From Escherichia phage BF17: a stretch of DNA of 64,000 bases. Below are positions 1,331 through 20,228 of this stretch, piece by piece (position 1 is the stretch's first letter; each line of letters starts with the position of its first letter). A program made the position numbers and the translations under genes. The stretch lies in sequence record MW822008.1, one strand, 5' to 3'. The notes below the pieces were generated by a model, which worked only from the letters and a program-made list of their open reading frames with translations, did no database searches and was not told where the DNA came from.

Positions 1331-1673
1331 GCTTTCTCGCGTCTATGTAGTAATTATACGCTTTTTCAGGATCAAGTCAATACCTAAAAACAAAATAATT
1401 GAAAATAATTTAACGCGTTTAAACGGCCCGTAAAGCCCTGGAATGATTGGAATGGTGCAAATGTATAGCTTATGTGTATTAATGCGTTAGAATGCGTCTG
1501 AGGCCGTTTTACGGGGTATGGGGATGATTTGGTGGATTGATTCAGTACTGAATAATAGTACTACTATATAGAAAGATAGTTCCCCTGGATGGTTGCAGTA
1601 CTGAATGATAGTACTGAATAATAGTTCCCCTATATAGAAAGAAAACTATTTTAAAAGTATTTGTAGAAAGTAC

Positions 1674-1701
1674 TTGCAAACTAAGTTTAACGGCGTATAA
1701 T
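1674..1701 (+). promoter_or_regulatory. sigma70 promoter (TTGCAA-16-TATAAT) with 5' stem-loop
   Basis: TTGCAA 1674-1679, TATAAT 1696-1701; hairpin AGCGGGAAcactTTCCCGCT about 1714-1733. Confidence 0.7.
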
Positions 1702-1756
1702 GTTTTACATCGAGAGCGGGAACACTTCCCGCTACATATTACGAGAGATTAAAACG

Positions 1757-2119
1757 ATGGCGACTCAAATCACTAAAATTATTGCTAACCTGGTTAACTT
1801 TCGCGACGAGATGAAAGATCTTCCGGCAGAAACGGTAAAAATTCACATTTCAGCTTATCGGGAACTTATTGCAATGTTACCGCTTAAGCGTGAACAATAC
1901 GCCGCGACCGTGATGCTTGATGCGATGATCCATAAGATGATCGCCAGTGATTTAACGATGGTTTATCAGTATATGGGCGAAAATTTCGCGGTGTATAGTA
2001 AACCAGTACCAGGAATGGAAAGTACAGAAGTATTACACGGTTTAAATTTAAAACAAGATGCATGGGATAATATGCCTCGTTTCCTGGTATGGGCTGACAG
2101 TGGCAAAATTTACGAATAA
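1757..2119 (+). CDS. hypothetical protein (120 aa)
   Basis: internal ATG 1757 of ORF 1700; track start lies in promoter -10; promoter + stem-loop upstream. Confidence 0.7.
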   Translation: MATQITKIIANLVNFRDEMKDLPAETVKIHISAYRELIAMLPLKREQYAATVMLDAMIHKMIASDLTMVYQYMGENFAVYSKPVPGMESTEVLHGLNLKQDAWDNMPRFLVWADSGKIYE

Positions 2120-2133
2120 GTTTAATAAAGTAC

Positions 2134-2161
2134 TTGCAAACTAAGTTTAAAAGCGTATAAT
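2134..2161 (+). promoter_or_regulatory. sigma70 promoter with 5' stem-loop
   Basis: TTGCAA 2134-2139, TATAAT 2156-2161, hairpin GTGGGGAAtagtTCCCCAC 2173-2191. Confidence 0.7.
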
Positions 2162-2213
2162 ACTTTACATCAGGTGGGGAATAGTTCCCCACTATAATTA
2201 AGAGATTAATTTT

Positions 2214-2447
2214 ATGAGTACTATTTTAACTGTTTCTCAATCCGTTGCACTGACTGACCTATTAAACGCTTTAAGCCGTTGCACTGAGGTTGGCTTGTTT
2301 GATGTGGTTGACGTTGCACCGGACGTTATTAATCATTTTTGTGATGCGATGGAAGAATGTAAGGAAGATGATAGCCGTATGATGGCGGTCGCCTTTGAGG
2401 AAGTACAGCCGGGTGAGATCAAAGGTTTACCAGTACTGAAAAAATAG
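2214..2447 (+). CDS. hypothetical protein (77 aa)
   Basis: ORF track; promoter + stem-loop upstream; weak AAGAG RBS. Confidence 0.7.
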   Translation: MSTILTVSQSVALTDLLNALSRCTEVGLFDVVDVAPDVINHFCDAMEECKEDDSRMMAVAFEEVQPGEIKGLPVLKK

Positions 2448-2450
2448 TAC

Positions 2451-2478
2451 TTGCAAACTAAGTTTAAAAGCGTATAAT
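2451..2478 (+). promoter_or_regulatory. sigma70 promoter with 5' stem-loop
   Basis: TTGCAA 2451-2456, TATAAT 2473-2478. Confidence 0.7.
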
Positions 2479-2529
2479 ACTTTCTATCAGGTGGTGAATA
2501 GTTCCCCACTATATAAGAGGATTAAAAAA

Positions 2530-2769
2530 ATGGCTAAATCAAAAATGTTCTTAGGTCACAAAAACAAAACTCATTGGAATGTAAGCCTTTGGATTAATAA
2601 CGATGAGTCATTGTACCGGTTGGCCCAGGACTTTATTAATGATAGCACTAATCGCAATGATGCGGCCCGTCATATGATGCTATTTTTAGAACAGACTGGA
2701 CAAGATAAAACACCGGACGGATTCAAATATAGCACTACTGCGATCCGTGCGGCGATGGTTGGAATGTAA
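2530..2769 (+). CDS. hypothetical protein (79 aa); paralog of 4570..4809
   Basis: ATG 2530 with RBS AAGAGGA; shares HKNKT(H/Q)WNVSLWINN...TPDGFKYSTTAIRAAMVGM with 4570 gene. Confidence 0.75.
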   Translation: MAKSKMFLGHKNKTHWNVSLWINNDESLYRLAQDFINDSTNRNDAARHMMLFLEQTGQDKTPDGFKYSTTAIRAAMVGM

Positions 2770-2782
2770 TAGAATTTATTTA

Positions 2783-2819
2783 AAGTACTATCATTTTTTT
2801 GCGATAGTACTTTATAATA
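2783..2819 (+). promoter_or_regulatory. Promoter with palindromic operator-like site AAGTACTATC...GATAGTACTT
   Basis: inverted repeat 2783-2792 / 2803-2812 followed by TATAAT 2814-2819. Confidence 0.55.
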
Positions 2820-2855
2820 GTGTTTTATTCATACACCAACGATAAGGGTAACAGC

Positions 2856-3122
2856 ATGAATATTAAGTATTTTGCGACGCGTGAACAAGCTCGGATCGCC
2901 GCACGCCAGGACGGGGCAACGTTTAAAGATATGGGAGCGGGATCGGCAAGTGGTGAACGTTGGGCCATTGTAAAGCGTAGTACCGCCAGATCATTACAGT
3001 ACTGGTTAGCGGCGTTAAAAAGTCCCGATAGTGTATCGCGTCGAGTGGTAGAAATAAAGCTCGACCGAAAGGGCAACCGCGTGACCGTGTACCGTACTAA
3101 AAAGATTGCAGTACTTGAATAA
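2856..3122 (+). CDS. hypothetical protein (88 aa); paralog of 15228..15623
   Basis: ATG 2856; shares FATREQARIAAR...FKDMG...RKGNRVTVY with 15228 gene. Confidence 0.75.
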   Translation: MNIKYFATREQARIAARQDGATFKDMGAGSASGERWAIVKRSTARSLQYWLAALKSPDSVSRRVVEIKLDRKGNRVTVYRTKKIAVLE

Positions 3123-3129
3123 AAAGTAC

Positions 3130-3157
3130 TTGCAAACTATGTTTAATGGCGTATAAT
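3130..3157 (+). promoter_or_regulatory. sigma70 promoter with 5' stem-loop
   Basis: TTGCAA 3130-3135, TATAAT 3152-3157, hairpin AGCGGGAAcactTCCCGCC. Confidence 0.7.
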
Positions 3158-3209
3158 GTTTTACATCGAGAGCGGGAACACTTCCCGCCTATAACCTGGA
3201 GTAATAAAA

Positions 3210-3440
3210 ATGACTAATATGTATATGACTGAAGTTAAAACCGTAAAAGATACTACCACGAATAAAACTACTTACTTACAGCGGATCTGCGGTGTATGGC
3301 AACGTATCAGCAAATCAAAGTACTTTAAATTAACATCATATGCAAACCGTTCGGATTCATTCAGTACTGAAATAAAAGGTAATAAAGTACACCAATACGG
3401 CACTTATTATTATTATAGCCTGGACGCGATTGCAGTATAA
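3210..3440 (+). CDS. hypothetical protein (76 aa)
   Basis: ORF track; RBS GGAG 3198-3201. Confidence 0.7.
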   Translation: MTNMYMTEVKTVKDTTTNKTTYLQRICGVWQRISKSKYFKLTSYANRSDSFSTEIKGNKVHQYGTYYYYSLDAIAV

Positions 3441-3470
3441 GCAGTTTACAAATCTTTACAATTGCCGGTA

Positions 3471-3550
3471 TTGACTTATTTTGTCAGTACTGGCATAATG
3501 TATTCATTGGCAGATAAGCCGTAGCCCATAGGGTGCGGGAGTGTATCTAT
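3471..3550 (+). promoter_or_regulatory. Promoter (TTGACT-17-CATAAT) plus conserved transcribed element GCCCATAGGGTGCGGGAGTGTATC
   Basis: TTGACT 3471-3476, CATAAT 3494-3499, element about 3524-3550; no ORF downstream. Confidence 0.55.
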
Positions 3551-3563
3551 AGAAAAAGTAGTT

Positions 3564-3643
3564 TATTACAGTTACAATTGTGCACCCGGTGGGTTAGCTG
3601 TTGTCATGGGGTATATTATGCCAGTACTTGATAATGCTGTCAA
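3564..3643 (-). promoter_or_regulatory. Convergent minus-strand promoter (TTGACA-17-CATAAT) plus conserved element ACCCACCGGGTGCACAA
   Basis: minus-strand -35 at 3638-3643, -10 at 3615-3620, element about 3575-3595; faces the 3471 promoter. Confidence 0.55.
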
Positions 3644-3688
3644 TACTTTTTTTACTATTCAGTACTGAAAACTATTTTTAAAAAGTAC

Positions 3689-3716
3689 TTGCAAACTATG
3701 TTTAAAGGCGTATAAT
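3689..3716 (+). promoter_or_regulatory. sigma70 promoter P1 upstream of structured leader
   Basis: TTGCAA 3689-3694, TATAAT 3711-3716. Confidence 0.65.
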
Positions 3717-3721
3717 GTTTT

Positions 3722-3806
3722 ACATCAGGACGGGGAACGAAATAAGTAACTCCCCGTTAAGTAGCCCAGGAGTAAGGCACACGAAAAACTCCCCTGATAA
3801 AATAGT
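3722..3806 (+). ncRNA. Conserved structured leader / candidate small RNA between tandem promoters (copy 1)
   Basis: about 85% identical to 14031-14114; hairpin CGGGGA...TCCCCG with compensatory change in copy 2. Confidence 0.4.
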
Positions 3807-3834
3807 TTGACAAATGTTTTTAAAAGCGTATAAT
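3807..3834 (+). promoter_or_regulatory. sigma70 promoter P2 (TTGACA-16-TATAAT)
   Basis: TTGACA 3807-3812, TATAAT 3829-3834. Confidence 0.65.
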
Positions 3835-3866
3835 ACTTACATCAACTACTGAATGAGGGTTACAAA

Positions 3867-4478
3867 ATGAAAACTATCACTACTACTACTTTCGTTATGG
3901 ATTTTTCTGAATTGAACGCAGAACAAAAAACGTCAGCTATCGAACTGGTTCGGGAACGTGAAAAAAACTTAAACGATGATTATTTTTCTGAAAGTGAAAT
4001 TGAATACTATAAAGAAACAGTACTACCGGAATATGGCATTAATGACGCTGATTTACGTTTCAGTGGCTTTTGGTCCCAGGGTGACGGTGCATCAATCAGT
4101 ACTGACCACGTTGACGCAGTGAAGTTTTTACGCAAGGTAAGAGCATTAACTAAGTATCGCTCAATCCGTCACTTGCTGAATGAAGATGATTTGGCGATGA
4201 GTGTAAAGCGTTCTCACTCCCACTACTCGCATGAAAACACTGTAAGCGGGTACATTGAATCGGCTTACACTGATTTAACCGCAAAACAAGAAACGTTAGT
4301 TAATGAGCTTGAGGAACTACTCACTGAAACTATTCGTGAATTATCCCGCAAGTTGTACCGTGATTTAGAGAATGCATATGAGGATCAATTCACTACTGAA
4401 AACATTACGGCACTGATTGAGGGTAACGAATATCAATTCAATGTTATTGATGGCGTAGTAGAATCAATCGAATATTAA
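3867..4478 (+). CDS. hypothetical acidic protein (203 aa)
   Basis: ORF track; RBS GAGGG; largest module-1 ORF after the kinase-like gene. Confidence 0.75.
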   Translation: MKTITTTTFVMDFSELNAEQKTSAIELVREREKNLNDDYFSESEIEYYKETVLPEYGINDADLRFSGFWSQGDGASISTDHVDAVKFLRKVRALTKYRSIRHLLNEDDLAMSVKRSHSHYSHENTVSGYIESAYTDLTAKQETLVNELEELLTETIRELSRKLYRDLENAYEDQFTTENITALIEGNEYQFNVIDGVVESIEY

Positions 4479-4491
4479 TTTAAAAAAGTAC

Positions 4492-4519
4492 TTGCAAACT
4501 AAGTTTAAAAGCGTATAAT
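4492..4519 (+). promoter_or_regulatory. sigma70 promoter with 5' stem-loop
   Basis: TTGCAA 4492-4497, TATAAT 4514-4519, hairpin GCGGGGAgtggTTCCCCGC. Confidence 0.7.
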
Positions 4520-4569
4520 ACTTTATATCGAGGCGGGGAGTGGTTCCCCGCTCAAACGAGGATTTAAAA

Positions 4570-4809
4570 ATGGCTAGTTCTAAAACTTACAACGGGCACA
4601 AAAACAAAACTCAATGGAATGTAAGCCTTTGGATTAATAACGGTGAGTCATTGTATCGGCTTGCACAAAGTTGTATCGCACAAAGTAGAACTAAAGATAT
4701 TGCAGCGGAATGTATGTACCGCAGATTAAAAGCCAACGGTACTACTACAACGCCGGACGGTTTTAAGTATAGCACTACTGCGATCCGTGCTGCAATGGTT
4801 GGAATGTAA
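4570..4809 (+). CDS. hypothetical protein (79 aa); paralog of 2530..2769
   Basis: ATG 4570, RBS GAGGA. Confidence 0.75.
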   Translation: MASSKTYNGHKNKTQWNVSLWINNGESLYRLAQSCIAQSRTKDIAAECMYRRLKANGTTTTPDGFKYSTTAIRAAMVGM

Positions 4810-4866
4810 TATTCAGTACTGAGATAATGGCGGGTAATAGTTCCCGCCTTTACTGAGGGTTATCTA

Positions 4867-5127
4867 ATGAGTAAAGTAATAAAGTACAATGTGTTAAGCA
4901 AATCATTGTCTATCAGTGAATGCACCGATGGTTTTTGGATGTACGATGAAACGCGTGGCATGAATTTAGCTATGCGTGCAAAAACTGCTGAGGCGGCGTA
5001 TATTCAAGCACTGGAATACTACCAGGAACGTTTAAAGGAAGTAGAAGAAGATTATAAAAGCCTCAAAGCGAAAGTAGATCATTTCGTCGGTCAATTCATC
5101 GAGGAAGACGACGACAAACAATATTGA
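4867..5127 (+). CDS. hypothetical protein (86 aa)
   Basis: ORF track; RBS GAGGG; upstream stem-loop GGCGGGtaatagttCCCGCC. Confidence 0.7.
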   Translation: MSKVIKYNVLSKSLSISECTDGFWMYDETRGMNLAMRAKTAEAAYIQALEYYQERLKEVEEDYKSLKAKVDHFVGQFIEEDDDKQY

Positions 5128-5135
5128 AAAAGTAC

Positions 5136-5163
5136 TTGCAATTAGTTTTCAGTACTGTATAAT
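5136..5163 (+). promoter_or_regulatory. sigma70 promoter with 5' stem-loop
   Basis: TTGCAA 5136-5141, TATAAT 5158-5163, hairpin GGGAGAAatggTTCTCCC. Confidence 0.7.
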
Positions 5164-5213
5164 GGTTTACATCAAAGGGAGAAATGGTTCTCCCTGGTAA
5201 TGAGGAAAATAAA

Positions 5214-5435
5214 ATGGCTAATATCACTACTCTTTCCCAACTGGAAGCACTGGTTAAATCTATGCGGGAACATGCCGACAAAATCGGCGTACAAGATCCA
5301 GCCGTTTGCTTCTGCGACGAATTGAATGATGATACCCTGGTAATAGCAGAAGTCCAGGACGTTTCTAACTATTCATCGCGTTACACTGGCGGCGTAGCAA
5401 ATAAAGGTGACTTCTGTTTATACCTTACAAAATAA
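5214..5435 (+). CDS. hypothetical protein (73 aa)
   Basis: ATG 5214, RBS GAGG 5202-5205. Confidence 0.75.
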   Translation: MANITTLSQLEALVKSMREHADKIGVQDPAVCFCDELNDDTLVIAEVQDVSNYSSRYTGGVANKGDFCLYLTK

Positions 5436-5438
5436 CAA

Positions 5439-5471
5439 CGCGGGGAGATAATAACTCCCCGTTACTTTTTC
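5439..5471 (+). terminator. Rho-independent terminator
   Basis: hairpin CGGGGAGataataaCTCCCCG followed by T-run. Confidence 0.7.
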
Positions 5472-5502
5472 AGTACTGAATCATTTAATAGACGGATCTA
5501 TG

Positions 5503-5573
5503 CACCCGGTGGGTTAGTGACTGTTTCGTCTTGATGTAGTAATTATGCCAGTACTGGATGCACTTGTCAACAA
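5503..5573 (-). promoter_or_regulatory. Minus-strand promoter (TTGACA-17-CATAAT) plus conserved ACCCACCGGGTGCATAG element
   Basis: -35 at 5568-5573, -10 at 5545-5550, element about 5503-5518; no minus-strand ORF. Confidence 0.5.
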
Positions 5574-5603
5574 CTATTTTTCAAATACTTTTTATTAAAA
5601 TAC

Positions 5604-5631
5604 TTGCAATTAGTTTTTAAACGCGTATAAT
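5604..5631 (+). promoter_or_regulatory. sigma70 promoter with 5' stem-loop
   Basis: TTGCAA 5604-5609, TATAAT 5626-5631. Confidence 0.7.
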
Positions 5632-5678
5632 GTTTTGCATAGGGGGAGCGGTTCCCCTGGTAACTAAGGAATAATAAA

Positions 5679-5915
5679 ATGCTTGAACAAATCAAATCAA
5701 CGTCTTCGAATGTAACGGGAACGGTAGCACACTTTACTAGTGATGAATCGCGGGGCGTTCCCTATTGTGCTGTACATGTAAACACTGAGGGTAACTACTG
5801 GTTTACGGTTTACGGATCATATTCATTTGGACGGCCAGGGCATCAAAAAATTCTGGATAAAGTACAACCAACGGGTAAAAATATCACTGCTGAAATGTTT
5901 TATAAAAAATCATAA
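5679..5915 (+). CDS. hypothetical protein (78 aa)
   Basis: ORF track; RBS AAGGA. Confidence 0.75.
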   Translation: MLEQIKSTSSNVTGTVAHFTSDESRGVPYCAVHVNTEGNYWFTVYGSYSFGRPGHQKILDKVQPTGKNITAEMFYKKS

Positions 5916-5920
5916 AGTAC

Positions 5921-5948
5921 TTGATAATAGTTTTTAGTACTGTATAAT
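5921..5948 (+). promoter_or_regulatory. sigma70 promoter with 5' stem-loop
   Basis: TTGATA 5921-5926, TATAAT 5943-5948, hairpin GGGGGAGCGGTTCCCCC. Confidence 0.65.
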
Positions 5949-5999
5949 ATTTTACATCGCAAGGGGGAGCGGTTCCCCCTGGTAACTAAGGATAATCAA

Positions 6000-6299: not shown

Positions 6300-6320
6300 T
6301 ATATACTACGGGGTAACATC

Positions 6321-6551: not shown

Positions 6552-6555
6552 GTAC

Positions 6556-6586
6556 ATAGCCCACCTGGTGGGCTTTTTTGTTTTTG
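6556..6586 (+). terminator. Rho-independent terminator
   Basis: hairpin AGCCCACCtGGTGGGCT then TTTTTTG. Confidence 0.7.
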
Positions 6587-6633
6587 TAGTATCGTAGTAC
6601 TGAGATACTTTGAAAATAGTTTTAAAAAAGTAG

Positions 6634-6661
6634 TTGACATTACCGCAGAAAAGCGTAGAAT
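6634..6661 (+). promoter_or_regulatory. sigma70-like promoter (TTGACA-16-TAGAAT) with long diverged leader
   Basis: TTGACA 6634-6639, TAGAAT 6656-6661; leader 6668-6770 related to the 3722/14031 leaders. Confidence 0.6.
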
Positions 6662-6784
6662 GTATTACATCAAGACGGGGAGCACTAAGTAGACCGCCAG
6701 TAAGTCGAACGAAAAACTGGACACGTCGAGAAAACTTTGATACACTAATAAACGTAAACTAAACTTTAATTGAGGATTTATAAA

Positions 6785-7267: not shown

Positions 7268-7286
7268 CAATTAAAGTACTGAATCA

Positions 7287-7318: not shown

Positions 7319-7324
7319 TTATCG

Positions 7325-7468: not shown

Positions 7469-7496
7469 TTGCACGATTAAGAGATTAGCGTATAAT
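7469..7496 (+). promoter_or_regulatory. sigma70 promoter with 5' stem-loop
   Basis: TTGCAC 7469-7474, TATAAT 7491-7496, hairpin GGGGGAAacggTTCTCC. Confidence 0.7.
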
Positions 7497-7551
7497 GTTT
7501 TACATCGAGAGGGGGAAACGGTTCTCCTTCCAAATCAAAGGAATCAAAACA

Positions 7552-7787: not shown

Positions 7788-7815
7788 TTGCAAAGTAAAT
7801 CGAATAAAGTATAAT
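7788..7815 (+). promoter_or_regulatory. sigma70 promoter with 5' stem-loop
   Basis: TTGCAA 7788-7793, TATAAT 7810-7815, hairpin GGGGAGAAaatgGTTCTCCCC. Confidence 0.7.
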
Positions 7816-7865
7816 ACATTACATCAAGGGGAGAAAATGGTTCTCCCCACTACAAGGAAACTAAA

Positions 7866-8022: not shown

Positions 8023-8057
8023 GTACTATTGACATAGTTTGATAGTACTGGCATAAT
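8023..8057 (+). promoter_or_regulatory. Palindromic promoter cassette AGTACTAT-TGACATAGTTTG-ATAGTACT (copy 1)
   Basis: TTGACA 8029-8034, CATAAT 8052-8057; about 60 nt (8007-8070) exactly repeated at 8299-8362. Confidence 0.7.
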
Positions 8058-8314: not shown

Positions 8315-8349
8315 GTACTATTGACATAGTTTGATAGTACTGGCATAAT
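8315..8349 (+). promoter_or_regulatory. Palindromic promoter cassette (copy 2, exact repeat of copy 1)
   Basis: TTGACA 8321-8326, CATAAT 8344-8349. Confidence 0.7.
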
Positions 8350-9393: not shown

Positions 9394-9603
9394 ATGCTTA
9401 CTGTACAGGATAAGATCGACATCTTAAAGGTTAATATGTATGTGATTGATGCCGTACCTGGTAAAGTATTTGCATACGATGATTCTAATCGCAGTCCTTT
9501 CTATTGTAGTCATGTAGTTGGATACGTGCCGTTGGCGTATGTTATCGAAAGAGTGGTTGATGCAGCATACAATCATTTTTTAGAAAATAATACTTGCAAT
9601 TAG
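9394..9603 (+). CDS. hypothetical protein (69 aa)
   Basis: ORF track; 5 nt after previous stop. Confidence 0.6.
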   Translation: MLTVQDKIDILKVNMYVIDAVPGKVFAYDDSNRSPFYCSHVVGYVPLAYVIERVVDAAYNHFLENNTCN

Positions 9604-9621
9604 TTTTTAAACGCGTATAAT
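9594..9621 (+). promoter_or_regulatory. sigma70 promoter with 5' stem-loop
   Basis: TTGCAA 9594-9599, TATAAT 9616-9621, hairpin GGGGAGAAatgaTTCTCCCC. Confidence 0.7.
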
Positions 9622-9672
9622 GTTTTACATGAAGGGGAGAAATGATTCTCCCCACTAATTAAGGAATATGAA

Positions 9673-9819: not shown

Positions 9820-9823
9820 TACT

Positions 9824-9850
9824 TGCAATTAGTTTTCAGTACTGTATAAT
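9824..9850 (+). promoter_or_regulatory. sigma70 promoter with 5' stem-loop
   Basis: TTGCAA 9824-9829, TATAAT 9845-9850. Confidence 0.7.
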
Positions 9851-9900
9851 AGTTTACATGAAGGGGAGAAATGATTCTCCCCAATAACAGGAGAAACAAA

Positions 9901-10394: not shown

Positions 10395-10422
10395 TTGCAA
10401 ACTATCTCAATTGGCGTATAAT
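10395..10422 (+). promoter_or_regulatory. sigma70 promoter with 5' stem-loop
   Basis: TTGCAA 10395-10400, TATAAT 10417-10422. Confidence 0.7.
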
Positions 10423-10473
10423 GTTTTACATCGAGAGGGGGAACGGTTTCCCCTGGTAATAAGGAAACGAATC

Positions 10474-10828: not shown

Positions 10829-10857
10829 TTTGACAATAGATTATAGTACTGTATAAT
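10829..10857 (+). promoter_or_regulatory. sigma70 promoter (TTGACA-17-TATAAT) with 5' stem-loop
   Basis: TTGACA 10829-10834, TATAAT 10852-10857. Confidence 0.7.
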
Positions 10858-10906
10858 AAGTTACATCAAGGGGAGAATAGTTCTCCCCACTAACAGAGAA
10901 AACAAA

Positions 10907-11132: not shown

Positions 11133-11167
11133 GTACTATTGACATAGTTTGATAGTACTGACATAAT
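11133..11167 (+). promoter_or_regulatory. Palindromic promoter cassette (copy 3)
   Basis: TTGACA 11139-11144, CATAAT 11162-11167, flanked by AGTACTAT / ATAGTACT. Confidence 0.7.
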
Positions 11168-11403: not shown

Positions 11404-11437
11404 AAGTTATTGACATAGTTTGATAGTACTGTATAAT
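11404..11437 (+). promoter_or_regulatory. Palindromic promoter cassette (copy 4)
   Basis: TTGACA 11410-11415, TATAAT 11432-11437. Confidence 0.7.
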
Positions 11438-11932: not shown

Positions 11933-12013
11933 TTGACAATATCCTCCAGTACTGGCATAATACTTACATCAAGACGAGAACGTCACTAACCCATAGGGTG
12001 CACAAATGTAACT
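11933..12013 (+). promoter_or_regulatory. Promoter (TTGACA-17-CATAAT) plus conserved element ACCCATAGGGTGCACAAATGTAAC
   Basis: TTGACA 11933-11938, CATAAT 11956-11961, element 11988-12013. Confidence 0.55.
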
Positions 12014-12523: not shown

Positions 12524-12552
12524 TTGACAGTACTATCCAGTAGTGTTATAGT
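12524..12552 (+). promoter_or_regulatory. sigma70 promoter (TTGACA-17-TATAGT) with 5' stem-loop
   Basis: TTGACA 12524-12529, TATAGT 12547-12552, hairpin AGGGGAAacatcTTCCCCT. Confidence 0.65.
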
Positions 12553-12598
12553 ACTTACATCAAGGGGAAACATCTTCCCCTACTAAGAGGAAATGAAA

Positions 12599-13144: not shown

Positions 13145-13172
13145 TTGACAAGATAATCTAGTACTGTATAAT
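13145..13172 (+). promoter_or_regulatory. sigma70 promoter (TTGACA-16-TATAAT) with 5' stem-loop
   Basis: TTGACA 13145-13150, TATAAT 13167-13172. Confidence 0.7.
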
Positions 13173-13221
13173 AAGTTACATGAAGGGGAGAAATGATTCT
13201 CCCCACTGAGAGGAAAGAAAA

Positions 13222-13998: not shown

Positions 13999-14026
13999 TT
14001 GCATTGTACTTAGAATCAAGTATAAT
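13999..14026 (+). promoter_or_regulatory. sigma70 promoter P1 (TTGCAT-16-TATAAT)
   Basis: TTGCAT 13999-14004, TATAAT 14021-14026. Confidence 0.65.
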
Positions 14027-14030
14027 GTTT

Positions 14031-14114
14031 TACATCAGGACGGGGAACGAAACAAGTAACCCCGTTAAGTAGTCCAGGAGTAAGACATAAGAAAACCTCC
14101 CCTGATAAAATAGT
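14031..14114 (+). ncRNA. Conserved structured leader / candidate small RNA (copy 2)
   Basis: about 85% identical to 3722-3806; stem CGGGG...CCCCG one base pair shorter on both arms. Confidence 0.4.
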
Positions 14115-14142
14115 TTGACAATAGAAAGTAAACGAGTATAAT
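14115..14142 (+). promoter_or_regulatory. sigma70 promoter P2 (TTGACA-16-TATAAT)
   Basis: TTGACA 14115-14120, TATAAT 14137-14142. Confidence 0.65.
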
Positions 14143-14454: not shown

Positions 14455-14482
14455 TTGACAAAGTATCTTAGTACTGTATAAT
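14455..14482 (+). promoter_or_regulatory. sigma70 promoter with 5' stem-loop
   Basis: TTGACA 14455-14460, TATAAT 14477-14482, hairpin GGGGGAAtggTTCCCCTCC. Confidence 0.7.
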
Positions 14483-14537
14483 AGTTTACATCGAGAGGGG
14501 GAATGGTTCCCCTCCTAACAAAGAGAGAGAAATAAAA

Positions 14538-14723: not shown

Positions 14724-14751
14724 TTGACAAAGTATCTTAGTACTGTATAAT
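14724..14751 (+). promoter_or_regulatory. sigma70 promoter with 5' stem-loop
   Basis: TTGACA 14724-14729, TATAAT 14746-14751. Confidence 0.7.
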
Positions 14752-14808
14752 AGTTTACATCAAGTGAGGGGAAACGGTTCCCCTCCTAACAAAGAGAGAG
14801 AAATAAAA

Positions 14809-15146: not shown

Positions 15147-15183
15147 AGTACTATTTGACATTGCCCAGATAGTACTTTATAAT
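15147..15183 (+). promoter_or_regulatory. Promoter TTGACA-17-TATAAT enclosed by palindrome AAGTACTAT...ATAGTACTT
   Basis: TTGACA 15155-15160, TATAAT 15178-15183; same architecture as 2783-2819. Confidence 0.65.
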
Positions 15184-15643: not shown

Positions 15644-15671
15644 ACGGCGGGATCAGTTCCCGCCTTTTTTA
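15644..15671 (+). terminator. Rho-independent terminator
   Basis: hairpin GGCGGGatcagttCCCGCC then TTTTTT. Confidence 0.75.
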
Positions 15672-15685: not shown

Positions 15686-15940
15686 ATGATTAAGGTACAA
15701 CTATCTAAAGATAATATCTTGCGGGTACACTATAAAGCACCACAGAGAATCATCACAAAGGCCGTACAGCTTGCTAATGAGTTTATTAATGGTAACCTAT
15801 TACCAAGGAAGTTAAGCAACGGAAAACTGCGTGTAATCGATGTAGACACTAACAACAGAATAGTAATTGAGAACACAGGAAAGATAAACCTATATGAACA
15901 CCAACAATATAATAAGAAAATAAAACTAATATCACGTTGA
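15686..15940 (+). CDS. hypothetical basic protein (84 aa)
   Basis: ORF track; RBS AGGA. Confidence 0.65.
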   Translation: MIKVQLSKDNILRVHYKAPQRIITKAVQLANEFINGNLLPRKLSNGKLRVIDVDTNNRIVIENTGKINLYEHQQYNKKIKLISR

Positions 15941-15965
15941 CAGTACTCAATTGTTTTAGTATTAT
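15937..15965 (+). promoter_or_regulatory. sigma70 promoter (TTGACA-17-TATTAT); duplicated cassette with 16213-16241
   Basis: TTGACA 15937-15942, TATTAT 15960-15965; leader TACACATACCAACACGGG shared. Confidence 0.6.
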
Positions 15966-15993: not shown

Positions 15994-16212
15994 ATGAAAT
16001 TATCTAAAATCGAAAAGAAAACTATTGATGAAGCAGTTAAGCACGGTTATACCTTTCGTAATGATTCACATTTTACCAATTTTCAACAAGGCCAAAGGAC
16101 TATTAAAAAACTAATTGACAAAGGTTTATTAGTTAAAGTAGATAACGGTAACGGCATTGAGTATCAGCCAACCCAAGACGCATTATCTTTAAAGAAATAT
16201 GCAATTATCTAA
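15994..16212 (+). CDS. hypothetical protein (72 aa)
   Basis: ATG 15994; track start 15937 is the TTG of the -35. Confidence 0.7.
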   Translation: MKLSKIEKKTIDEAVKHGYTFRNDSHFTNFQQGQRTIKKLIDKGLLVKVDNGNGIEYQPTQDALSLKKYAII

Positions 16213-16241
16213 TTGACAGTACTCAAATGTTTTAGTACTAT
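16213..16241 (+). promoter_or_regulatory. sigma70 promoter (TTGACA-17-TACTAT)
   Basis: TTGACA 16213-16218, TACTAT 16236-16241. Confidence 0.6.
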
Positions 16242-16543: not shown

Positions 16544-17128
16544 ATGCGTAATTATACTAAATTCATCCGTACCCTGTCAGAAATGGAAACCAACAAAGAG
16601 ATCCTTTCAGCTTGTCGGTTAGCTGGTCTGGAGATCATCGGTGCGGGTTCTTCCCGTATTGTATTCGCTTTAAATGATCGGTTAGTGATTAAGGTCGCCA
16701 ATTGTGATGCGGGTGTAGAACAAAATGAAACTGAATGTAAGGTATGGAATTTTTTAGACTATGACCGCCCTCAATTGAAACAGTACTTTGCAAAGGTGCA
16801 TATGCATTTATGCGATCCTGATAATATGTTTATCGTTATGGATCGGTTGAGTACTGCAAGCAAAGGCAGTGTAAAGCACGTTAACGCGTGCAACGAATTA
16901 AAGTACAATATTAAACGTAATGCCATTGAACGCCAGCACCGCTTTGCTGATGCACTACAACACGTCGATGATACATTATCAACACTAACGATAAGAGATA
17001 TCAGAAAACAGAATATCGGCCAGGATCGTAATGGACTTATTAAAGTACTTGATTACGGTTTAACCCGCAATATCTGGAATCAGTACTATAAAAAGCGTGA
17101 TGTGGCAGCAAGTAAAGTAACACGATAA
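16544..17128 (+). CDS. putative small atypical protein kinase (194 aa) with Hanks-like catalytic motifs
   Basis: IIGAGSSRIVF (Gly-rich loop), VIKV (Lys), IRDIRKQNIG (cf. HRDxKxxN), VLDYGL (cf. DFG); ATG 16544 with RBS AAGGAG. Confidence 0.55.
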   Translation: MRNYTKFIRTLSEMETNKEILSACRLAGLEIIGAGSSRIVFALNDRLVIKVANCDAGVEQNETECKVWNFLDYDRPQLKQYFAKVHMHLCDPDNMFIVMDRLSTASKGSVKHVNACNELKYNIKRNAIERQHRFADALQHVDDTLSTLTIRDIRKQNIGQDRNGLIKVLDYGLTRNIWNQYYKKRDVAASKVTR

Positions 17129-17141
17129 AAAAGATTAAAAA

Positions 17142-17225
17142 AGGGATTGATTTCGGTCAGTCCCTTTGCTATTATATATTCATTGAGAGATAGCTCACTG
17201 ACCCACAGGGTGCATAAATGTATCT
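17142..17225 (+). promoter_or_regulatory. Composite module: terminator-like hairpin overlapping promoter plus conserved element ACCCACAGGGTGCATAAATGTATC
   Basis: hairpin GGGATTGAtttcgGTCAGTCCC 17143-17165; element 17201-17225. Confidence 0.55.
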
Positions 17226-17268: not shown

Positions 17269-17296
17269 TTGCATTGTACTTAGAATCAAGTATAAT
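17269..17296 (+). promoter_or_regulatory. sigma70 promoter with 5' stem-loop
   Basis: TTGCAT 17269-17274, TATAAT 17291-17296. Confidence 0.7.
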
Positions 17297-17351
17297 GTTT
17301 TATATCGAGAGGGGGGGAACGGTTCTCCCTCAAAGAATAAGGAATAAAATC

Positions 17352-17573
17352 ATGACTACAATGACTTGCATTTACGCTTCCAATCTTCTGAATGATGCGG
17401 CCTTTAATGTTGATTCAGAATATCAATGTTATCGGGATGAAAATAAAAAAGTTTTTGTAGTTGATAATAATGGTTTCCATATTGAAATACAATCCGGCTT
17501 CACTGGTGTTGATGGTAAATCAGTATGGGGCGTACAGGATGATAACGGTACATATCATTTTAAACGTAATTAA
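17352..17573 (+). CDS. hypothetical protein (73 aa)
   Basis: ATG 17352, RBS AAGGAA. Confidence 0.75.
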   Translation: MTTMTCIYASNLLNDAAFNVDSEYQCYRDENKKVFVVDNNGFHIEIQSGFTGVDGKSVWGVQDDNGTYHFKRN

Positions 17574-17576
17574 GTA

Positions 17577-17604
17577 TTGACAAAGTATCTTAGTACTGTA
17601 TAAT
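17577..17604 (+). promoter_or_regulatory. sigma70 promoter with 5' stem-loop
   Basis: TTGACA 17577-17582, TATAAT 17599-17604. Confidence 0.7.
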
Positions 17605-17657
17605 AGTTTACATCAAGGGGAGAATAGTTCTCCCCGATACTAAAAGGAAACAAAATT

Positions 17658-17930
17658 ATGTCCAGCTACTCCGCTACTATGATCATTAAAGATATGAACG
17701 GTAATCCTACTTCCGCTGGTGGATCATTTGGAAACATTAATTTAGATGGTCGGTTATCCATGCAATCAGCCATCGATGCAGCGAAAGAAGTTTTTAAGAA
17801 TGAATGCACTGTAAGCAAGCTGGATTATATGGGATTCGCTATCGAGAAAACTAATCGTTTTGTGAACTACAAAAATCCACTGATGATTGATACTAACCTG
17901 AAAGCTAACGAAGTGGAATACTTATTATGA
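17658..17930 (+). CDS. hypothetical protein (90 aa)
   Basis: ORF track; RBS AAGGAAA. Confidence 0.75.
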   Translation: MSSYSATMIIKDMNGNPTSAGGSFGNINLDGRLSMQSAIDAAKEVFKNECTVSKLDYMGFAIEKTNRFVNYKNPLMIDTNLKANEVEYLL

Positions 17931-18125: not shown

Positions 18126-18153
18126 TTGCATTGTAGTTAGATTAACGTATAAT
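18126..18153 (+). promoter_or_regulatory. sigma70 promoter with 5' stem-loop
   Basis: TTGCAT 18126-18131, TATAAT 18148-18153, hairpin GCGGGGGAAtagtTCTCCCGCC. Confidence 0.7.
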
Positions 18154-18204
18154 GTTTTACATAGAGCGGGGGAATAGTTCTCCCGCCAGTCCAGGAGATA
18201 CACC

Positions 18205-18468
18205 ATGAACACTATCGAAATCACTATCAATGCACACGTATACGACAACGTAGTACTGCAAACTACTATGACCGCTAACGATACCAGTACTTTGCGGAAT
18301 ACTGTTATTAGTGCCGTATGTGCCGCTATCGGTGATGTCGCCCTGGAAAATGCAAAACACGTAAACGATGGTTTCACTATGTGCAAACGTGATAACGCAA
18401 AACATATCATCGTGGAAGGTTACGGCGGTGTAGAATTTAATGTTTATATGAAAAAAGTACTTGCATAA
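18205..18468 (+). CDS. hypothetical protein (87 aa)
   Basis: ORF track; RBS CAGGAG; 3' end overlaps next promoter -35. Confidence 0.7.
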   Translation: MNTIEITINAHVYDNVVLQTTMTANDTSTLRNTVISAVCAAIGDVALENAKHVNDGFTMCKRDNAKHIIVEGYGGVEFNVYMKKVLA

Positions 18469-18488
18469 TAACTAAAACAAAGTATAAT
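18461..18488 (+). promoter_or_regulatory. sigma70 promoter with 5' stem-loop
   Basis: TTGCAT 18461-18466, TATAAT 18483-18488. Confidence 0.7.
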
Positions 18489-18535
18489 GTTTTGCATAGG
18501 GGGAGATGTCCTCCCCCACTAAAAGGAGTAATAAA

Positions 18536-18760
18536 ATGGCTAACTTTGATGAACTGATGCGGGAAGTAGCTAACCTGGCAGAAGAGAAAAAATCATTCGA
18601 TTCTATCTATAACACCTCTTACCGTGATTCAGTACTGGCATGTAACCAGGATCAAAAAGATGAACTAATCGCCACCTATCATGAAGCATGGAAGTACTAC
18701 CGACAATGGGAGAAAGAAGAAAGAGAGTCTACCATTGACGGCCTCAATAATCTAATCTAA
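18536..18760 (+). CDS. hypothetical protein (75 aa)
   Basis: ATG 18536, RBS AAAGGAG. Confidence 0.75.
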   Translation: MANFDELMREVANLAEEKKSFDSIYNTSYRDSVLACNQDQKDELIATYHEAWKYYRQWEKEERESTIDGLNNLI

Positions 18761-18773
18761 AAGTTTTATTTCA

Positions 18774-18808
18774 GTACTATTGACATAGCTTGATAGTACT
18801 GATGTAAT
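18774..18808 (+). promoter_or_regulatory. Palindromic promoter cassette (copy 5, diverged -10)
   Basis: AGTACTAT-TGACATAGCTTG-ATAGTACT; TTGACA 18780-18785. Confidence 0.6.
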
Positions 18809-18836
18809 AACTTTACTAACTACAAGGGGAAACATC

Positions 18837-19094
18837 ATGGAACAATTCACACAATATCGGGTAAATCCTCAAGCTATGGCCTACGTAGAAGACCATAAAA
18901 CGTTACCAGTACTGCAACCAGTTAAAGGCCATATCTATCGTGCAATGTCGTGGAGTACGGCCCAGGATGGCTATAAAACCGTAGCCGTTGGTATGTACTG
19001 CGGTAATGGTGAATGGTTTGATCCAAATAATCCGGTAGCCATTGACAGTACTGAAAAAATGAAATGGGCCGACTACATCGAAGATATTTCATAA
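18837..19094 (+). CDS. hypothetical protein (85 aa)
   Basis: ORF track; RBS AAGGGGAAA. Confidence 0.7.
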   Translation: MEQFTQYRVNPQAMAYVEDHKTLPVLQPVKGHIYRAMSWSTAQDGYKTVAVGMYCGNGEWFDPNNPVAIDSTEKMKWADYIEDIS

Positions 19095-19107
19095 AAAGAA
19101 TAAAAAA

Positions 19108-19187
19108 AAGGAGTTGACTTCGGTCCGCTCCTTTAGTACTATATACGCATAGAAACAAATCAGCCCACAGGGTGCATAAGTGTATCC
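19108..19187 (+). promoter_or_regulatory. Composite module: terminator-like hairpin overlapping promoter plus conserved element AGCCCACAGGGTGCATAAGTGTATC
   Basis: hairpin about 19109-19133; element 19162-19187; Chi GCTGGTGG 19222-19229 downstream. Confidence 0.55.
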
Positions 19188-19254
19188 AAAATATATAGTT
19201 AATAACGGTGAGTAACTATCTGCTGGTGGAACTAAAACTATTAATAAAAAAGTA

Positions 19255-19283
19255 TTGACAAAGTATATCAGTACTGCAATAAT
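19255..19283 (+). promoter_or_regulatory. sigma70-like promoter (TTGACA-17-AATAAT)
   Basis: TTGACA 19255-19260; GC-rich leader hairpin. Confidence 0.55.
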
Positions 19284-19336
19284 GTATCTCGTAGGGCGGC
19301 AATGGTGCGACGGCCCACAAAGTTAGGAGATTCAAA

Positions 19337-19669
19337 ATGAGTACTTCAATCGCTATCGTTAAAGCTTTCATCCGTACCAATGTTTCATCTGTATTCATCG
19401 ACGGTCTGGATCGGGAAGTAGAATACTCAATCATTATCGCACAGACTGCAAACGGTGCTCGGTATATCCTTAATGATAGTGAAGCAAATCACTACTACTT
19501 CACTAAAGCTACTGGCTTTAAACGCATCGATGCTGATGTAGTATACGCTAAGATGAATAAGCTGGTAGACAAGATTAACGCTAAAGGTACTATAGATTTA
19601 CAGTACTGGACCGAAACCGATCCAGAATATGGATCTCACCGCTACCTGAATCCAGGTATTAAAATGTAA
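19337..19669 (+). CDS. hypothetical protein (110 aa)
   Basis: ORF track; RBS AGGAG. Confidence 0.75.
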   Translation: MSTSIAIVKAFIRTNVSSVFIDGLDREVEYSIIIAQTANGARYILNDSEANHYYFTKATGFKRIDADVVYAKMNKLVDKINAKGTIDLQYWTETDPEYGSHRYLNPGIKM

Positions 19670-19676
19670 AAAGTAC

Positions 19677-19704
19677 TTGCATAGTACTTAGAATCAAGTA
19701 TAAT
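19677..19704 (+). promoter_or_regulatory. sigma70 promoter with 5' stem-loop
   Basis: TTGCAT 19677-19682, TATAAT 19699-19704, hairpin GGGGGAAatggTTCTCCCTCC. Confidence 0.7.
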
Positions 19705-19758
19705 GTTTTACATAGAGAGGGGGAAATGGTTCTCCCTCCTAAATTAAGGAGTTTTATC

Positions 19759-20160
19759 ATGACCTTCTCAATCAATTCCTTCGCTGACGTTTTAGTACTG
19801 GCTCGGACTTTCGGTAAAGATGCACTGGAGTACGCTGTAAGTAATGGCACTATCCAACCGGAACAGTGCCGCATCATTGGAAACTGCAAACGTTGGGCGG
19901 TATCCAATACTATTGCACTGGAAAACTTCCACGATGGCAACAATGAATATTCTGTTGATGTAGTATTCGAAGCCGTTGATCTCGGCGGTATCTATAATAC
20001 TAACCTGAATGATGTGCGTATCGTTCGCACGGGGTTCGGTGCTTATGATGTATCTATCCGTGAAGCTATGGACAACGGATACATTAGCAAGGACTTACTT
20101 GCTCACATCATGCAGCTGTGTACGGAACGTAACGAAGCACGCACTATCTTAGGACTGTAA
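19759..20160 (+). CDS. hypothetical protein (133 aa)
   Basis: ATG 19759, RBS AAGGAG. Confidence 0.75.
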   Translation: MTFSINSFADVLVLARTFGKDALEYAVSNGTIQPEQCRIIGNCKRWAVSNTIALENFHDGNNEYSVDVVFEAVDLGGIYNTNLNDVRIVRTGFGAYDVSIREAMDNGYISKDLLAHIMQLCTERNEARTILGL

Positions 20161-20228
20161 GCGTTACACATCACCAAACATCATAGGCCGCCTTGTAGCG
20201 GCCTTAACTATATCAGGAGTACATACAT

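Follow-up and report, generated by a model that had tools for sequence, protein, structure and literature searches.

The window analyzed here, 64,000 nt of DNA from Escherichia phage BF17 (record MW822008.1), opens with a field of approximately 60 small open reading frames (ORFs) on the plus strand, 47-213 aa in length, and this report concerns the promoter cassettes, most of them carrying a hairpin in the leader, that precede those genes. In a sequence search, positions 1600-9600 matched Asteriusvirus jumbo coliphages at 92-97% identity in 3-11 collinear pieces, the best-matching genomes including ECO103 4-12-1, Turkey3, G17, Sharanji, phAPEC6 and UB. The counterpart of the cassette region in phage vB_Ec-M-J falls within an annotated direct terminal repeat (1-21525), and terminal repeats of 20,668 bp and 20,993 bp have been described for Sharanji (PMC11895373) and fEgEco12 (PMC13070987), respectively. 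By sequence homology, the phage is a jumbo coliphage of the Asteriusvirus type (121Q/PBECO4 group) and the window its left end, homologous to the ~21 kb direct terminal repeat, and the cassette region is the host-takeover (early) small-gene field within that part. Annotation of the small early ORFs in relatives is, almost without exception, "hypothetical".

A strict promoter scan (TTGACA or TTGCAA, a 16-18 nt spacer and TATAAT, with no more than one mismatch in total) identified 36 promoters on the plus strand and 4 on the minus strand between positions 1650 and 20200, where 0.93 +/- 1.0 were expected from 100 dinucleotide shuffles; the other 43.8 kb of the window contains 14 and 3, respectively. 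With the addition of one site that has two mismatches (16213), our working list comprises 37 promoters. A looser scan found nine perfect sites (12 of 12 positions), all on the plus strand. The promoters follow an A/T-rich stretch (aaaaagtac/ttaaaaa), each is followed 28-57 nt downstream by an ATG with a Shine-Dalgarno site, and a TACAT(C/G/A) motif follows approximately 25 of the 37 (manual count). The estimate of about 35 near-consensus sigma70 promoters made in an earlier, sequence-only reading of this DNA was therefore accurate, and the region is an array of strong early promoters serving small ORFs.

That reading had also placed a hairpin behind each promoter. Real hairpins are present, but only at about two thirds of the promoters: the 37 divide into 23 with a canonical hairpin, 3 with long structured leaders, 1 with a different hairpin, 1 that drives an ORF-less unit and 9 without a hairpin. 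Scanning for stems with a minimum of 6 bp and 4 G-C pairs and a loop of 3-8 nt, we found 22 perfect hairpins with stems of 7-9 bp that begin 8-14 nt (most commonly 12 nt) past the -10 hexamer, and a 23rd canonical hairpin (2490-2510) has a single U-C mismatch; the same scan found no such hairpin downstream of a promoter in the remaining 44 kb of the window. The loops are 3, 4 or 5 nt long (TAG, ATGG, ATGA, CAC and others), and the 3' end of the hairpin lies 17-25 nt from the ATG. When 45 nt were folded from each presumed start, 24 of 37 leaders reached -10 kcal/mol or better (-10 to -16) and eleven were near zero, compared with 3-4% of background 45-mers reaching -10 kcal/mol. Sigma70 promoters usually start 6-9 nt after the -10 hexamer, preferably at a purine that follows a pyrimidine. 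Based on this rule, host RNA polymerase probably starts transcription at the A at position 6 or 8 of gttttACATC after the -10, such that the hairpin would span about +4/+8 to +25 of the cassette's own mRNA. Counting the 6th base after the -10 as +1, the stem would be preceded by 5-8 unpaired nucleotides, or by 3-6 counting the 8th, and the leaders at 5604 and 19677 are predicted to be paired almost from the presumed +1. The 23 hairpin cassettes are as follows (promoters are given as -35 hexamer, spacer length and -10 hexamer).

1674..1733 (+): TTGCAA-16-TATAAT; hairpin 1715-1733 (AGCGGGAAcacTTCCCGCT); ATG 1757
2134..2193 (+): TTGCAA-16-TATAAT; hairpin 2173-2193; ATG 2214
2451..2510 (+): TTGCAA-16-TATAAT; hairpin 2490-2510 with the one U-C mismatch (the intact arm, GGTGGGGAA, is present in relatives); ATG 2530
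3130..3188 (+): TTGCAA-16-TATAAT; hairpin 3172-3188; ATG 3210
4492..4552 (+): TTGCAA-16-TATAAT; hairpin 4532-4552; ATG 4570
5136..5195 (+): TTGCAA-16-TATAAT; hairpin 5176-5195; ATG 5214
5604..5659 (+): TTGCAA-16-TATAAT; hairpin 5640-5659, just 8 nt past the -10; ATG 5679
5921..5980 (+): TTGATA-16-TATAAT; hairpin 5962-5980; ATG 6000
7469..7530 (+): TTGCAC-16-TATAAT; hairpin 7509-7530 with two G·U pairs; ATG 7552
7788..7848 (+): TTGCAA-16-TATAAT; hairpin 7828-7848; ATG 7866
9594..9653 (+): TTGCAA-16-TATAAT; hairpin 9634-9653 (GGGGAGAAatgaTTCTCCCC); ATG 9673
9823..9882 (+): TTGCAA-16-TATAAT; hairpin 9863-9882; ATG 9901
10395..10454 (+): TTGCAA-16-TATAAT; hairpin 10436-10454 with one G·U pair; ATG 10474
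10830..10888 (+): TTGACA-16-TATAAT (12 of 12); hairpin 10870-10888; ATG 10907
12524..12581 (+): TTGACA-17-TATAGT; hairpin 12563-12581; ATG 12599
13145..13204 (+): TTGACA-16-TATAAT (12 of 12); hairpin 13185-13204; ATG 13222
14455..14514 (+): TTGACA-16-TATAAT; hairpin 14495-14514; ATG 14538
14724..14785 (+): TTGACA-16-TATAAT; hairpin 14766-14785; ATG 14809
17269..17331 (+): TTGCAT-16-TATAAT; hairpin 17309-17331 with G·U pairs; ATG 17352
17577..17635 (+): TTGACA-16-TATAAT; hairpin 17617-17635; ATG 17658
18126..18186 (+): TTGCAT-16-TATAAT; hairpin 18166-18186; ATG 18205
18461..18517 (+): TTGCAT-16-TATAAT; hairpin 18499-18517 (GGGGGAGatgtcCTCCCCC); ATG 18536
19677..19738 (+): TTGCAT-16-TATAAT; hairpin 19717-19738; ATG 19759; last of the field

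A MAFFT alignment of the cassettes misplaced the stems, and a covariance model with a hand-given structure (R1), covering the -10 hexamer, the start region and the hairpin (8 pairs), was used in its stead. R1 found 85 copies, none of them off the gene strand, in seven sources (the window plus six phage loci). Counted by source, copies numbered 23 in the window, 27 in G17, 15 in EJP2, 11 in fENko-Kae01, 8 in 7t3 and, among rV5-like phages, 4 in A73 and 3 in LTH01; all 23 matches in the window lie within 1.7-19.7 kb of the 64 kb. As a negative control we used viral contigs retrieved from IMG/VR with a loose pattern (TATAATN5ACATN4GGGG) that yields mostly single chance matches: R1 had no match in 77 of these 79 contigs or in the RB49 locus (~685 kb in total), and the other two contigs matched. 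In the R1 alignment, 87.9% of cells are paired, all 8 pairs have changed on both sides, and there are 45 compensatory cells compared with 17.9 in shuffles, none of 500 shuffles reaching the observed value. The covariation score was 0.316, versus 0.09-0.14 when the 3' partners were slid. The 73 unique copies contain 43 distinct stems. Among internal non-Watson-Crick pairs, scored in a strand-neutral manner, 22 are G·T and 1 is A·C; several of the G·T pairs are one inherited variant (GGGGGAA/TTCTCCC), and G·T nonetheless occurs at six or more different positions. Loop length differs on otherwise identical arms. The covariation, the asymmetry between G·T and A·C and the variable loop length together indicate an RNA hairpin, formed by the sense strand, rather than a duplex-DNA operator.

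The hairpin is thus conserved as a structure rather than as a sequence, and it is constrained on the mRNA-sense strand. The idea, already put forward in the sequence-only reading, that the hairpin's sequence varies while its structure is kept is borne out by the compensatory changes, and the RNA-level role proposed with it fits the strand asymmetry of the wobble pairs. The loop had been described as a tetraloop closed by GAA/TTC; the closure is correct for most copies (GAA...UUC closes the loop in 62 of 73 unique copies, with the 5' arm always purine-rich and the 3' arm pyrimidine-rich), and the tetraloop only for some, given the range of loop lengths noted above.

Similar cassettes with unrelated stems are found in more distant phages. 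The native cassettes of the rV5-like phage A73 have -10 hexamers TAAACT, TAAATT or TAAGAT and hairpins 11-13 nt past the -10, with stems GCGGC/GCCGC, GCGGGG/CCCCGC and CGCCGC/GCGGCG, and those of RaK2 have stems GGGGATACA/TGTATCCCT, GGAGATTCCA/TGGAATCTCC and GGGAATGAA/TTCATTCCC located 10-14 nt past TATAAT. As judged from these sequences, hairpin cassettes occur in 121Q- and RaK2-group jumbo phages and in rV5-like phages. Because position and structure, not sequence, are kept across four lineages, the comparison points to a generic role tied to the transcript 5' end.

The cassettes also mark the places where related genomes differ. Of 40 indel breakpoints relative to G17, Turkey3, SHEFM2K and UB, 28 fall in cassettes, which make up 22.8% of the region (p = 3e-10). 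Six distinct indels overlap by 43-99 bp: where one genome has a single cassette, the other has two flanking ones. Gene 2214-2446 is missing from four relatives that have one cassette in its place, gene 8089-8300 is missing from G17 (junction cassette overlap 74 bp), and genes 14538-14720 and 15994-16211 are missing from SHEFM2K (overlaps 95 bp and 61 bp, respectively). Conversely, Turkey3 has a 281-bp insertion at cassette 9823 (window 9813-9871) flanked by duplicated cassette sequence, and G17 has a 396-bp insertion at cassette 17577 (window 17572-17670) with 99 bp of duplicated cassette at its flanks. Across phages, different cassettes precede genes of 93-100% identity (those behind 12524, 9823, 18126, 17269 and 14455): the gene behind 12524 is 99% identical in Turkey3 and its cassette there is different, and the Turkey3 stem at 18126 differs on both arms. 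The gene behind 7469 has a cassette without a hairpin in G17. Exchange extends beyond this group, since cassette 7788 and its gene (MKTCQCG...) are present at 90-95% identity in rV5-like phages (Vequintavirinae). Cassettes have therefore been exchanged between genes, phages and phage families, and they mark indel junctions.

Together, these results describe a feature that is real and statistically solid, a mobile regulatory cassette whose hairpin has moved into the 5' leader. In the explanation that we favor, nearly every small gene has a portable cassette of its own, ~85-95 bp long, which consists, in order, of an A/T-rich stretch, a near-consensus sigma70 promoter, a conserved (T)ACATC start region, a hairpin (in two thirds), an A-rich spacer, a Shine-Dalgarno site and the ATG; the repeated cassette DNA would provide homology for recombinational gene shuffling. 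That the hairpin acts at the RNA level, as part of the leader of portable, recombining early cassettes, we regard as very probable. For the explanation taken as a whole, in which an early field of portable cassettes yields messages with structured 5' ends, we put the chances at about even.

Two features of the hairpins bear on annotation. In four cassettes a loop ATG (5184, 9871, 18506 and 19726) is in frame with the gene, such that a mechanical ORF list starts these genes 30-33 nt early; their true starts are likely the Shine-Dalgarno-proximal ATGs at 5214, 9901, 18536 and 19759. In addition, three hairpins of the G-run/C-run type (4829-4848, 5440-5462 and 15646-15664) have no promoter ahead of them. 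Those at 5440 and 15646 were flagged as terminator-like, the latter being followed by T6, and the one at 4829 is directly upstream of a Shine-Dalgarno site; the three may be degraded "half cassettes" or terminators.

The remaining promoters in the working list have other leaders or none.

3689..3806 (+): promoter and 85-nt Y-shaped alpha-type leader, whose first element, ACGGGGA...TCCCCGT, sits where the hairpin usually is; the leader extends into the next promoter
13999..14114 (+): TTGCAT-16-TATAAT and a second copy of the alpha-type structured leader
6634..6784 (+): TTGACA-16-TAGAAT and a long beta-type leader with a covarying stem and conserved loop UAAGUCGAACGAAAAA; ATG 6785
19255..19316 (+): TTGACA-17-AATAAT and a different, imperfect hairpin at ~19294-19316; ATG 19337
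11933..12010 (+): TTGACA-17-CATAAT driving an ORF-less unit (ACATCAAGACGAGAACGTCACTAACCCATAGGGTGCA)
3807..3834 (+): hairpin-less promoter, 12 of 12; ATG 3867
8029..8057 (+): hairpin-less family, TTGACA-17-TGgCATAAT followed by TTATCAAGAC; ATG 8089
8321..8349 (+): hairpin-less promoter of the 8029 family; ATG 8391
11139..11167 (+): hairpin-less promoter of the 8029 family; ATG 11203
11410..11437 (+): hairpin-less promoter, 12 of 12; ATG 11482
14115..14142 (+): hairpin-less promoter, 12 of 12; ATG 14176
15155..15183 (+): hairpin-less promoter, 12 of 12; ATG 15228
15937..15965 (+): hairpin-less promoter; ATG 15994
16213..16241 (+): hairpin-less promoter, near-duplicate of 15937; ATG 16270

The leaders at 3689, 13999 and 6634 begin where canonical hairpins begin. 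Long structured leaders occupy 3722-3806, 14032-14114 and 6667-6784 of the window, along with 1952-2050 of locus L003 and 2045-2135 of locus L002, and common to them is a hairpin with a conserved 16-nt loop, UAAGNCNNACGAAAAA, on a stem that covaries from phage to phage (GGAG/CUCC, CCAG/CUGG, UCCUG/CAGGA, ACUUG/CAAGU). The alpha-type leader, which also occurs in rV5-like phages, has a Y-shaped fold of -22 kcal/mol (z = -3). The ORF-less unit is a strong promoter with the motif CCCA(C/T)NGGGTGC(A) ~30 nt further on; a weak hairpin comes after some copies, and after one (1261-1280) a T7 run. Ten copies are present, at 3525, 10328, 11990, 13929, 17202 and 19164 on the plus strand and at 5513, 3593, 1324 and 1108 on the minus strand, and two units face each other within 3440-3660. 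These units are candidate small RNAs. Neither the long structured leaders nor the ORF-less units matched an Rfam family. A search of the first 21.5 kb against Rfam (E up to 1) returned three sub-threshold matches at chance level, none of them at cassette hairpins, and ARAGORN found no transfer RNA and no transfer-messenger RNA.

What might the hairpin do? We tentatively favor protection of the mRNA 5' end, a function to which we would give somewhat less than an even chance. The hairpin would give early messages a structured 5' end, slowing 5'-end-dependent decay (RppH, RNase E entry), and it could likewise protect fragments cut from read-through transcripts. We favor this function because the position of the hairpin is tied to the start site and not to an upstream stop codon, because the first cassette (1674) has no upstream gene, and because read-through transcripts, if cut in their AU-rich promoter RNA, would have the hairpin close to the 5' end thus created.

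Several observations weigh against 5' protection, or against the evidence on which it draws. The +1 positions were placed by sigma70 spacing rules alone, and with 3-8 nt of unpaired leader the hairpin is not strictly 5'-terminal. RNase E bypasses simple (orthogonal) stem-loops while scanning (PMC9943677). The copies are paralogous and recombinationally exchanged, and the covariation counts are therefore higher than the true number of independent events. Of the early promoters, one third have no hairpin and at least one orthologous gene is hairpin-less in G17, which suggests that the hairpin is dispensable or merely modulatory. Predicted ribosome-binding-site accessibility was 0.68 with the hairpin and 0.70 without it, a difference that is not significant; because accessibility is the same in both cases, an effect as a translation "insulator" is unsupported in silico. 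Removing the 5' arm in silico lowered predicted accessibility from 0.68 to 0.59 (p = 0.003), compared with 0.63 for a shuffled arm. These two accessibility tests lend 5' protection little support.

Other functions were considered and set aside. An aid to promoter escape is improbable on geometric grounds, as the 3' arm (+18 to +25) would exit the RNA channel when polymerase is near +36 to +40, long after escape. RNase III requires longer stems than the 7-9 bp present here, which are too short for an RNase III site. None of the 23 hairpins has the U-tract of an intrinsic terminator, the translation insulator was discarded on the accessibility values given above, and a role as an obstacle to RNase E scanning is weakened by the bypass of orthogonal stem-loops (PMC9943677).

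An alternative explanation, which we consider unlikely but worth weighing, is that the hairpin is a recognition handle through which a phage or host protein regulates the whole early class together, whether by early-to-middle shut-off of translation or mRNA, by antiterminator loading (as with lambda nut/boxB) or by a "self" mark that spares phage mRNA from phage-induced decay. Within Asteriusvirus the loop-proximal stem is conserved in sequence too (the GAA...UUC closure and purine-rich 5' arm), and the element is confined to one temporal gene class and to the gene strand; however, across lineages the stem sequence is wholly different while the geometry is the same, which favors a generic physical role unless binders co-evolve with each lineage. 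RNase E would meet a large obstacle in any protein bound there, and obstacles of that kind have been shown to protect mRNA (PMC9943677), yet no candidate RNA-binding protein was identified. For antiterminator loading in particular, no boxA-like motif (CGCTCTTA-like; YGCTCTTWA) is present in 1-21 kb, and the loops, at 3 to 7 nt, are not GNRA-like. The drop in accessibility upon removal of the 5' arm, which frees an anti-Shine-Dalgarno-like 3' arm, is compatible with a switch, but the effect is small (0.59 versus 0.63 with a shuffled 3' arm).

The same hairpins have been likened to promoter-early-stem-loop (PeSL) modules, in which a sigma70-like early promoter is combined with a G-run/loop/C-run stem-loop (PMC2839356; PMC4122927). 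The stem-loop of PeSLs has been interpreted as a terminator or attenuator of upstream transcription, and one RB49 example reduced lacZ expression as strongly as rrnB T1 (PMC2839356); excised mini-circles of a cassette with its ORF are another feature ascribed to PeSLs. If the window cassettes were true PeSLs, their stem-loop would be a terminator, an attenuator or a 3'-exonuclease barrier for upstream transcripts, and its presence in the cassette's own transcript would be incidental. The polarity of the window hairpins (G-run, loop, C-run) is that of the RB49 stem-loops (PMC2839356), most genes here lack a canonical terminator, such that read-through into the next cassette is expected, and the G17 annotators called some gene-upstream hairpins of the region ARNold terminators. 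Against this, a terminator scan flagged none of the 23 hairpins, all of which lack U-tracts, while canonical terminators with T6-T7 runs do exist in the region (6558, 7289 and 15646). Placement differs as well: among the strong promoters of RB49 ORF185-211, the stem-loop occupies the spacer (TTGACAggggatcggtgatccccTATAAT) or overlies the -10, and it starts 13-24 nt ahead of the -10 end, whereas the window hairpins keep to a fixed place 8-14 nt past the -10. Were the hairpin a 3' barrier for the upstream message, it would be better placed before the AU-rich RNA of the promoter than after it; the first cassette has a hairpin and no upstream gene to serve; and with a terminator at +8 to +27, the cassette would abort its own transcripts too. 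We therefore think it doubtful that the hairpins act on upstream transcripts.

A more specific version of the class-wide regulatory handle is improbable to a slightly greater degree. The purine-rich 5' arm might be a Shine-Dalgarno mimic that occupies an anti-Shine-Dalgarno-like 3' arm (UUCUCCCC or CCCCUCCU); a later phage factor would bind or cut the 5' arm or the leader, after which the 3' arm would mask the Shine-Dalgarno site, or the message would decay. If so, hairpin-bearing early genes would be turned off together and hairpin-less cassettes would escape, and a newly captured gene would inherit this timing, the module being portable.

It is very unlikely that the hairpin is functionless, a passenger of a selfishly spreading or recombination-homogenized cassette whose conservation reflects copy-and-paste descent. 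Copying and exchange of the cassettes are evident, a third of the promoters do without a hairpin and the window copy at 2490 carries a disruptive mismatch, but the 43 stem variants stay paired, all eight pairs have changed on both sides well above shuffled controls, and copy-and-paste descent cannot explain the same geometry with unrelated stems, and even other -10 types, in RaK2 and rV5-like phages. Least probable by far is a DNA-level inverted repeat, either an operator at which a dimeric repressor would turn off the early promoters or a site of cruciform formation or recombination: a (near-)perfect palindrome does lie directly downstream of the start, where a bound protein could block elongation, and an RB49 PeSL crossover has been mapped to the loop (PMC2839356), but half-site spacing varies (loops of 3, 4 or 5 nt on identical arms) in a way that dimeric DNA binders tolerate poorly, the arms change by compensatory substitution with no single half-site sequence retained, and 22 G·T pairs to 1 A·C are expected of plus-strand RNA and not of duplex DNA.

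For annotation, the cassettes supply a searchable definition of the early expression module of 121Q/PBECO4/RaK2 jumbo phages; in this region, hairpins close ahead of genes have at times been labeled terminators. They extend the idea of a mobile regulatory cassette beyond T4-type phages, with cassettes and genes moving between unrelated coliphage families. They also represent a second architecture, in which the hairpin is in the 5' leader instead of inside the promoter and its structure is conserved in the four lineages examined; this conservation argues for a general benefit of a hairpin at approximately +5 to +25 on very strongly transcribed enterobacterial phage messages. To engineers of E. 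coli, the cassettes offer a ready-made and naturally diversified set of strong expression parts.

Additional features of the region were noted. One early gene (12260-12517, +) codes for a C4 zinc-finger protein of the DksA/TraR type (Pfam PF01258, E = 1.6e-10). The stretch from the -10 to the start is A/T-rich in the early promoters (GTTTT, ACTTT), and because of these A/T-rich discriminators the promoters may be insensitive to a DksA/TraR-like inhibitor that targets host promoters with GC-rich discriminators. The gene at 16544-17128 (+) has a weak, sub-cut-off protein-kinase-like match (Pfam Pkinase, E = 0.002), and its homolog in relatives is annotated as a putative Ser/Thr kinase. The palindrome AGTACT is in excess, with 117 copies in 1650-20200 versus 6 expected from base composition and 252 versus ~21 in the whole window, where it is densest in 1-20200; it is often lengthened to CAGTACTG and is frequent in promoter spacers and directly upstream of the -35 (aaaAGTACTTGCAA). 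Finally, the genome end has 1.6 kb of non-coding sequence, in which repeats of 8-bp period (GGCTAAAC, GGCTAGAT, GGACGTAG and similar) form an array at 750-915 among further short repeats (TAGTTCCCCT, TTTTGGGCGTA); the 750-915 repeats could be iterons, or packaging or terminus signals.

Among known systems, the gene field as a whole resembles the early modules of T5 and SPO1. The T5 pre-early genes and the SPO1 host-takeover module reportedly lie in long terminal repeats, according to work by Davison in 2015 and by Stewart and colleagues in 1998. Like the window's field, these modules place in a long direct terminal repeat many small genes without an assigned function, every gene having its own very strong host-sigma promoter and strong ribosome-binding site. 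We know of no description of a conserved leader hairpin or of cassette exchange in the T5 and SPO1 modules. The genome papers of Sharanji, fEgEco12, RaK2, CBB and PA5oct mention no promoter-plus-hairpin cassette, either leaving promoters unmentioned or giving promoters and terminators only, the rV5 genome paper lists 33 promoters and 20 terminators and no leader hairpin, and a search of open-access text turned up no mapped transcription starts for Asteriusvirus or Vequintavirinae.

With respect to the hairpin itself, a close bacterial parallel is hp1 of the ompA 5' untranslated region, which is likewise a short GC-rich hairpin situated near the start of an E. coli message, ahead of a strong ribosome-binding site. 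Stabilizer hairpins of the ompA type must reportedly be within a few nucleotides (about 0-4) of the 5' end (Emory, Bouvet and Belasco, in 1992), and synthetic 5' hairpins have reportedly been used as mRNA stabilizers (Carrier and Keasling, in 1999); the window cassettes differ in that 3-8 unpaired nucleotides probably precede the stem. The lambda nut site (boxA plus the boxB hairpin) also has a small RNA hairpin in an early transcript downstream of a sigma70 early promoter and acts on the nascent RNA, but its hairpin has a 5-bp stem and a GNRA-like pentaloop and occurs once per operon, whereas the window hairpins have stems of 7-9 bp and loops of 3-5 nt and occur in 23 copies, one per gene.

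The window cassettes also resemble the PeSLs of RB49/phi1, PST/T4 and nt-1/KVP40 (Arbiol et al. 2010, PMC2839356; Comeau et al. 2014, PMC4122927). Both are repeated intergenic modules of ~100 bp in which AT-rich sequence leads into a near-consensus sigma70 promoter, accompanied by a stem-loop of the G-run/loop/C-run type and a Shine-Dalgarno site, both are concentrated in plastic regions of small ORFan genes, and in both, indels between close relatives are bounded by modules, with one cassette on one side of the comparison and two flanking cassettes on the other. Four plus-strand elements of the window (10266-10301, 13872-13907, 17140-17175 and 19110-19145) do have the published PeSL layout, with a 12-bp hairpin (AAAGGGATTGACtccgGTCAGTCCCTTT) whose 5' arm contains the -35 TTGACT, followed by TTT and the extended -10 TGcTATTAT, and the terminator scan flagged all of these but 19110 as terminator-like. 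Moreover, PeSL leaders at 114.5-123.7 kb of RB49 (ACCCATCAAGACGAGATACCACTTAGGAG) share the start-region sequence ATCAAGACGA with the hairpin-less family of the window (8057-8090), and this sequence is also present in the ORF-less units (11961-11985), which hints at a common or exchanged leader among unrelated coliphages. The hairpin cassettes differ from PeSLs in several respects. In PST the stem-loop is directly upstream of the promoter, and no published PeSL has its stem-loop within its own transcript; the window hairpin lacks a U-tract and tolerates G·U in a strand-specific manner; and the window phage is a ~350 kb jumbo phage with the field in its terminal repeat. Since a stem-loop ahead of the start site is the defining feature of PeSLs and is not what is found here, and since U-tracts are also absent, the window cassettes are not PeSLs in the published sense. 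The match to T4-type PeSLs that the sequence-only reading had drawn thus stands for recombination and shuffling behavior and fails for the hairpin, which lies past the -10 within the transcript that the cassette itself initiates.

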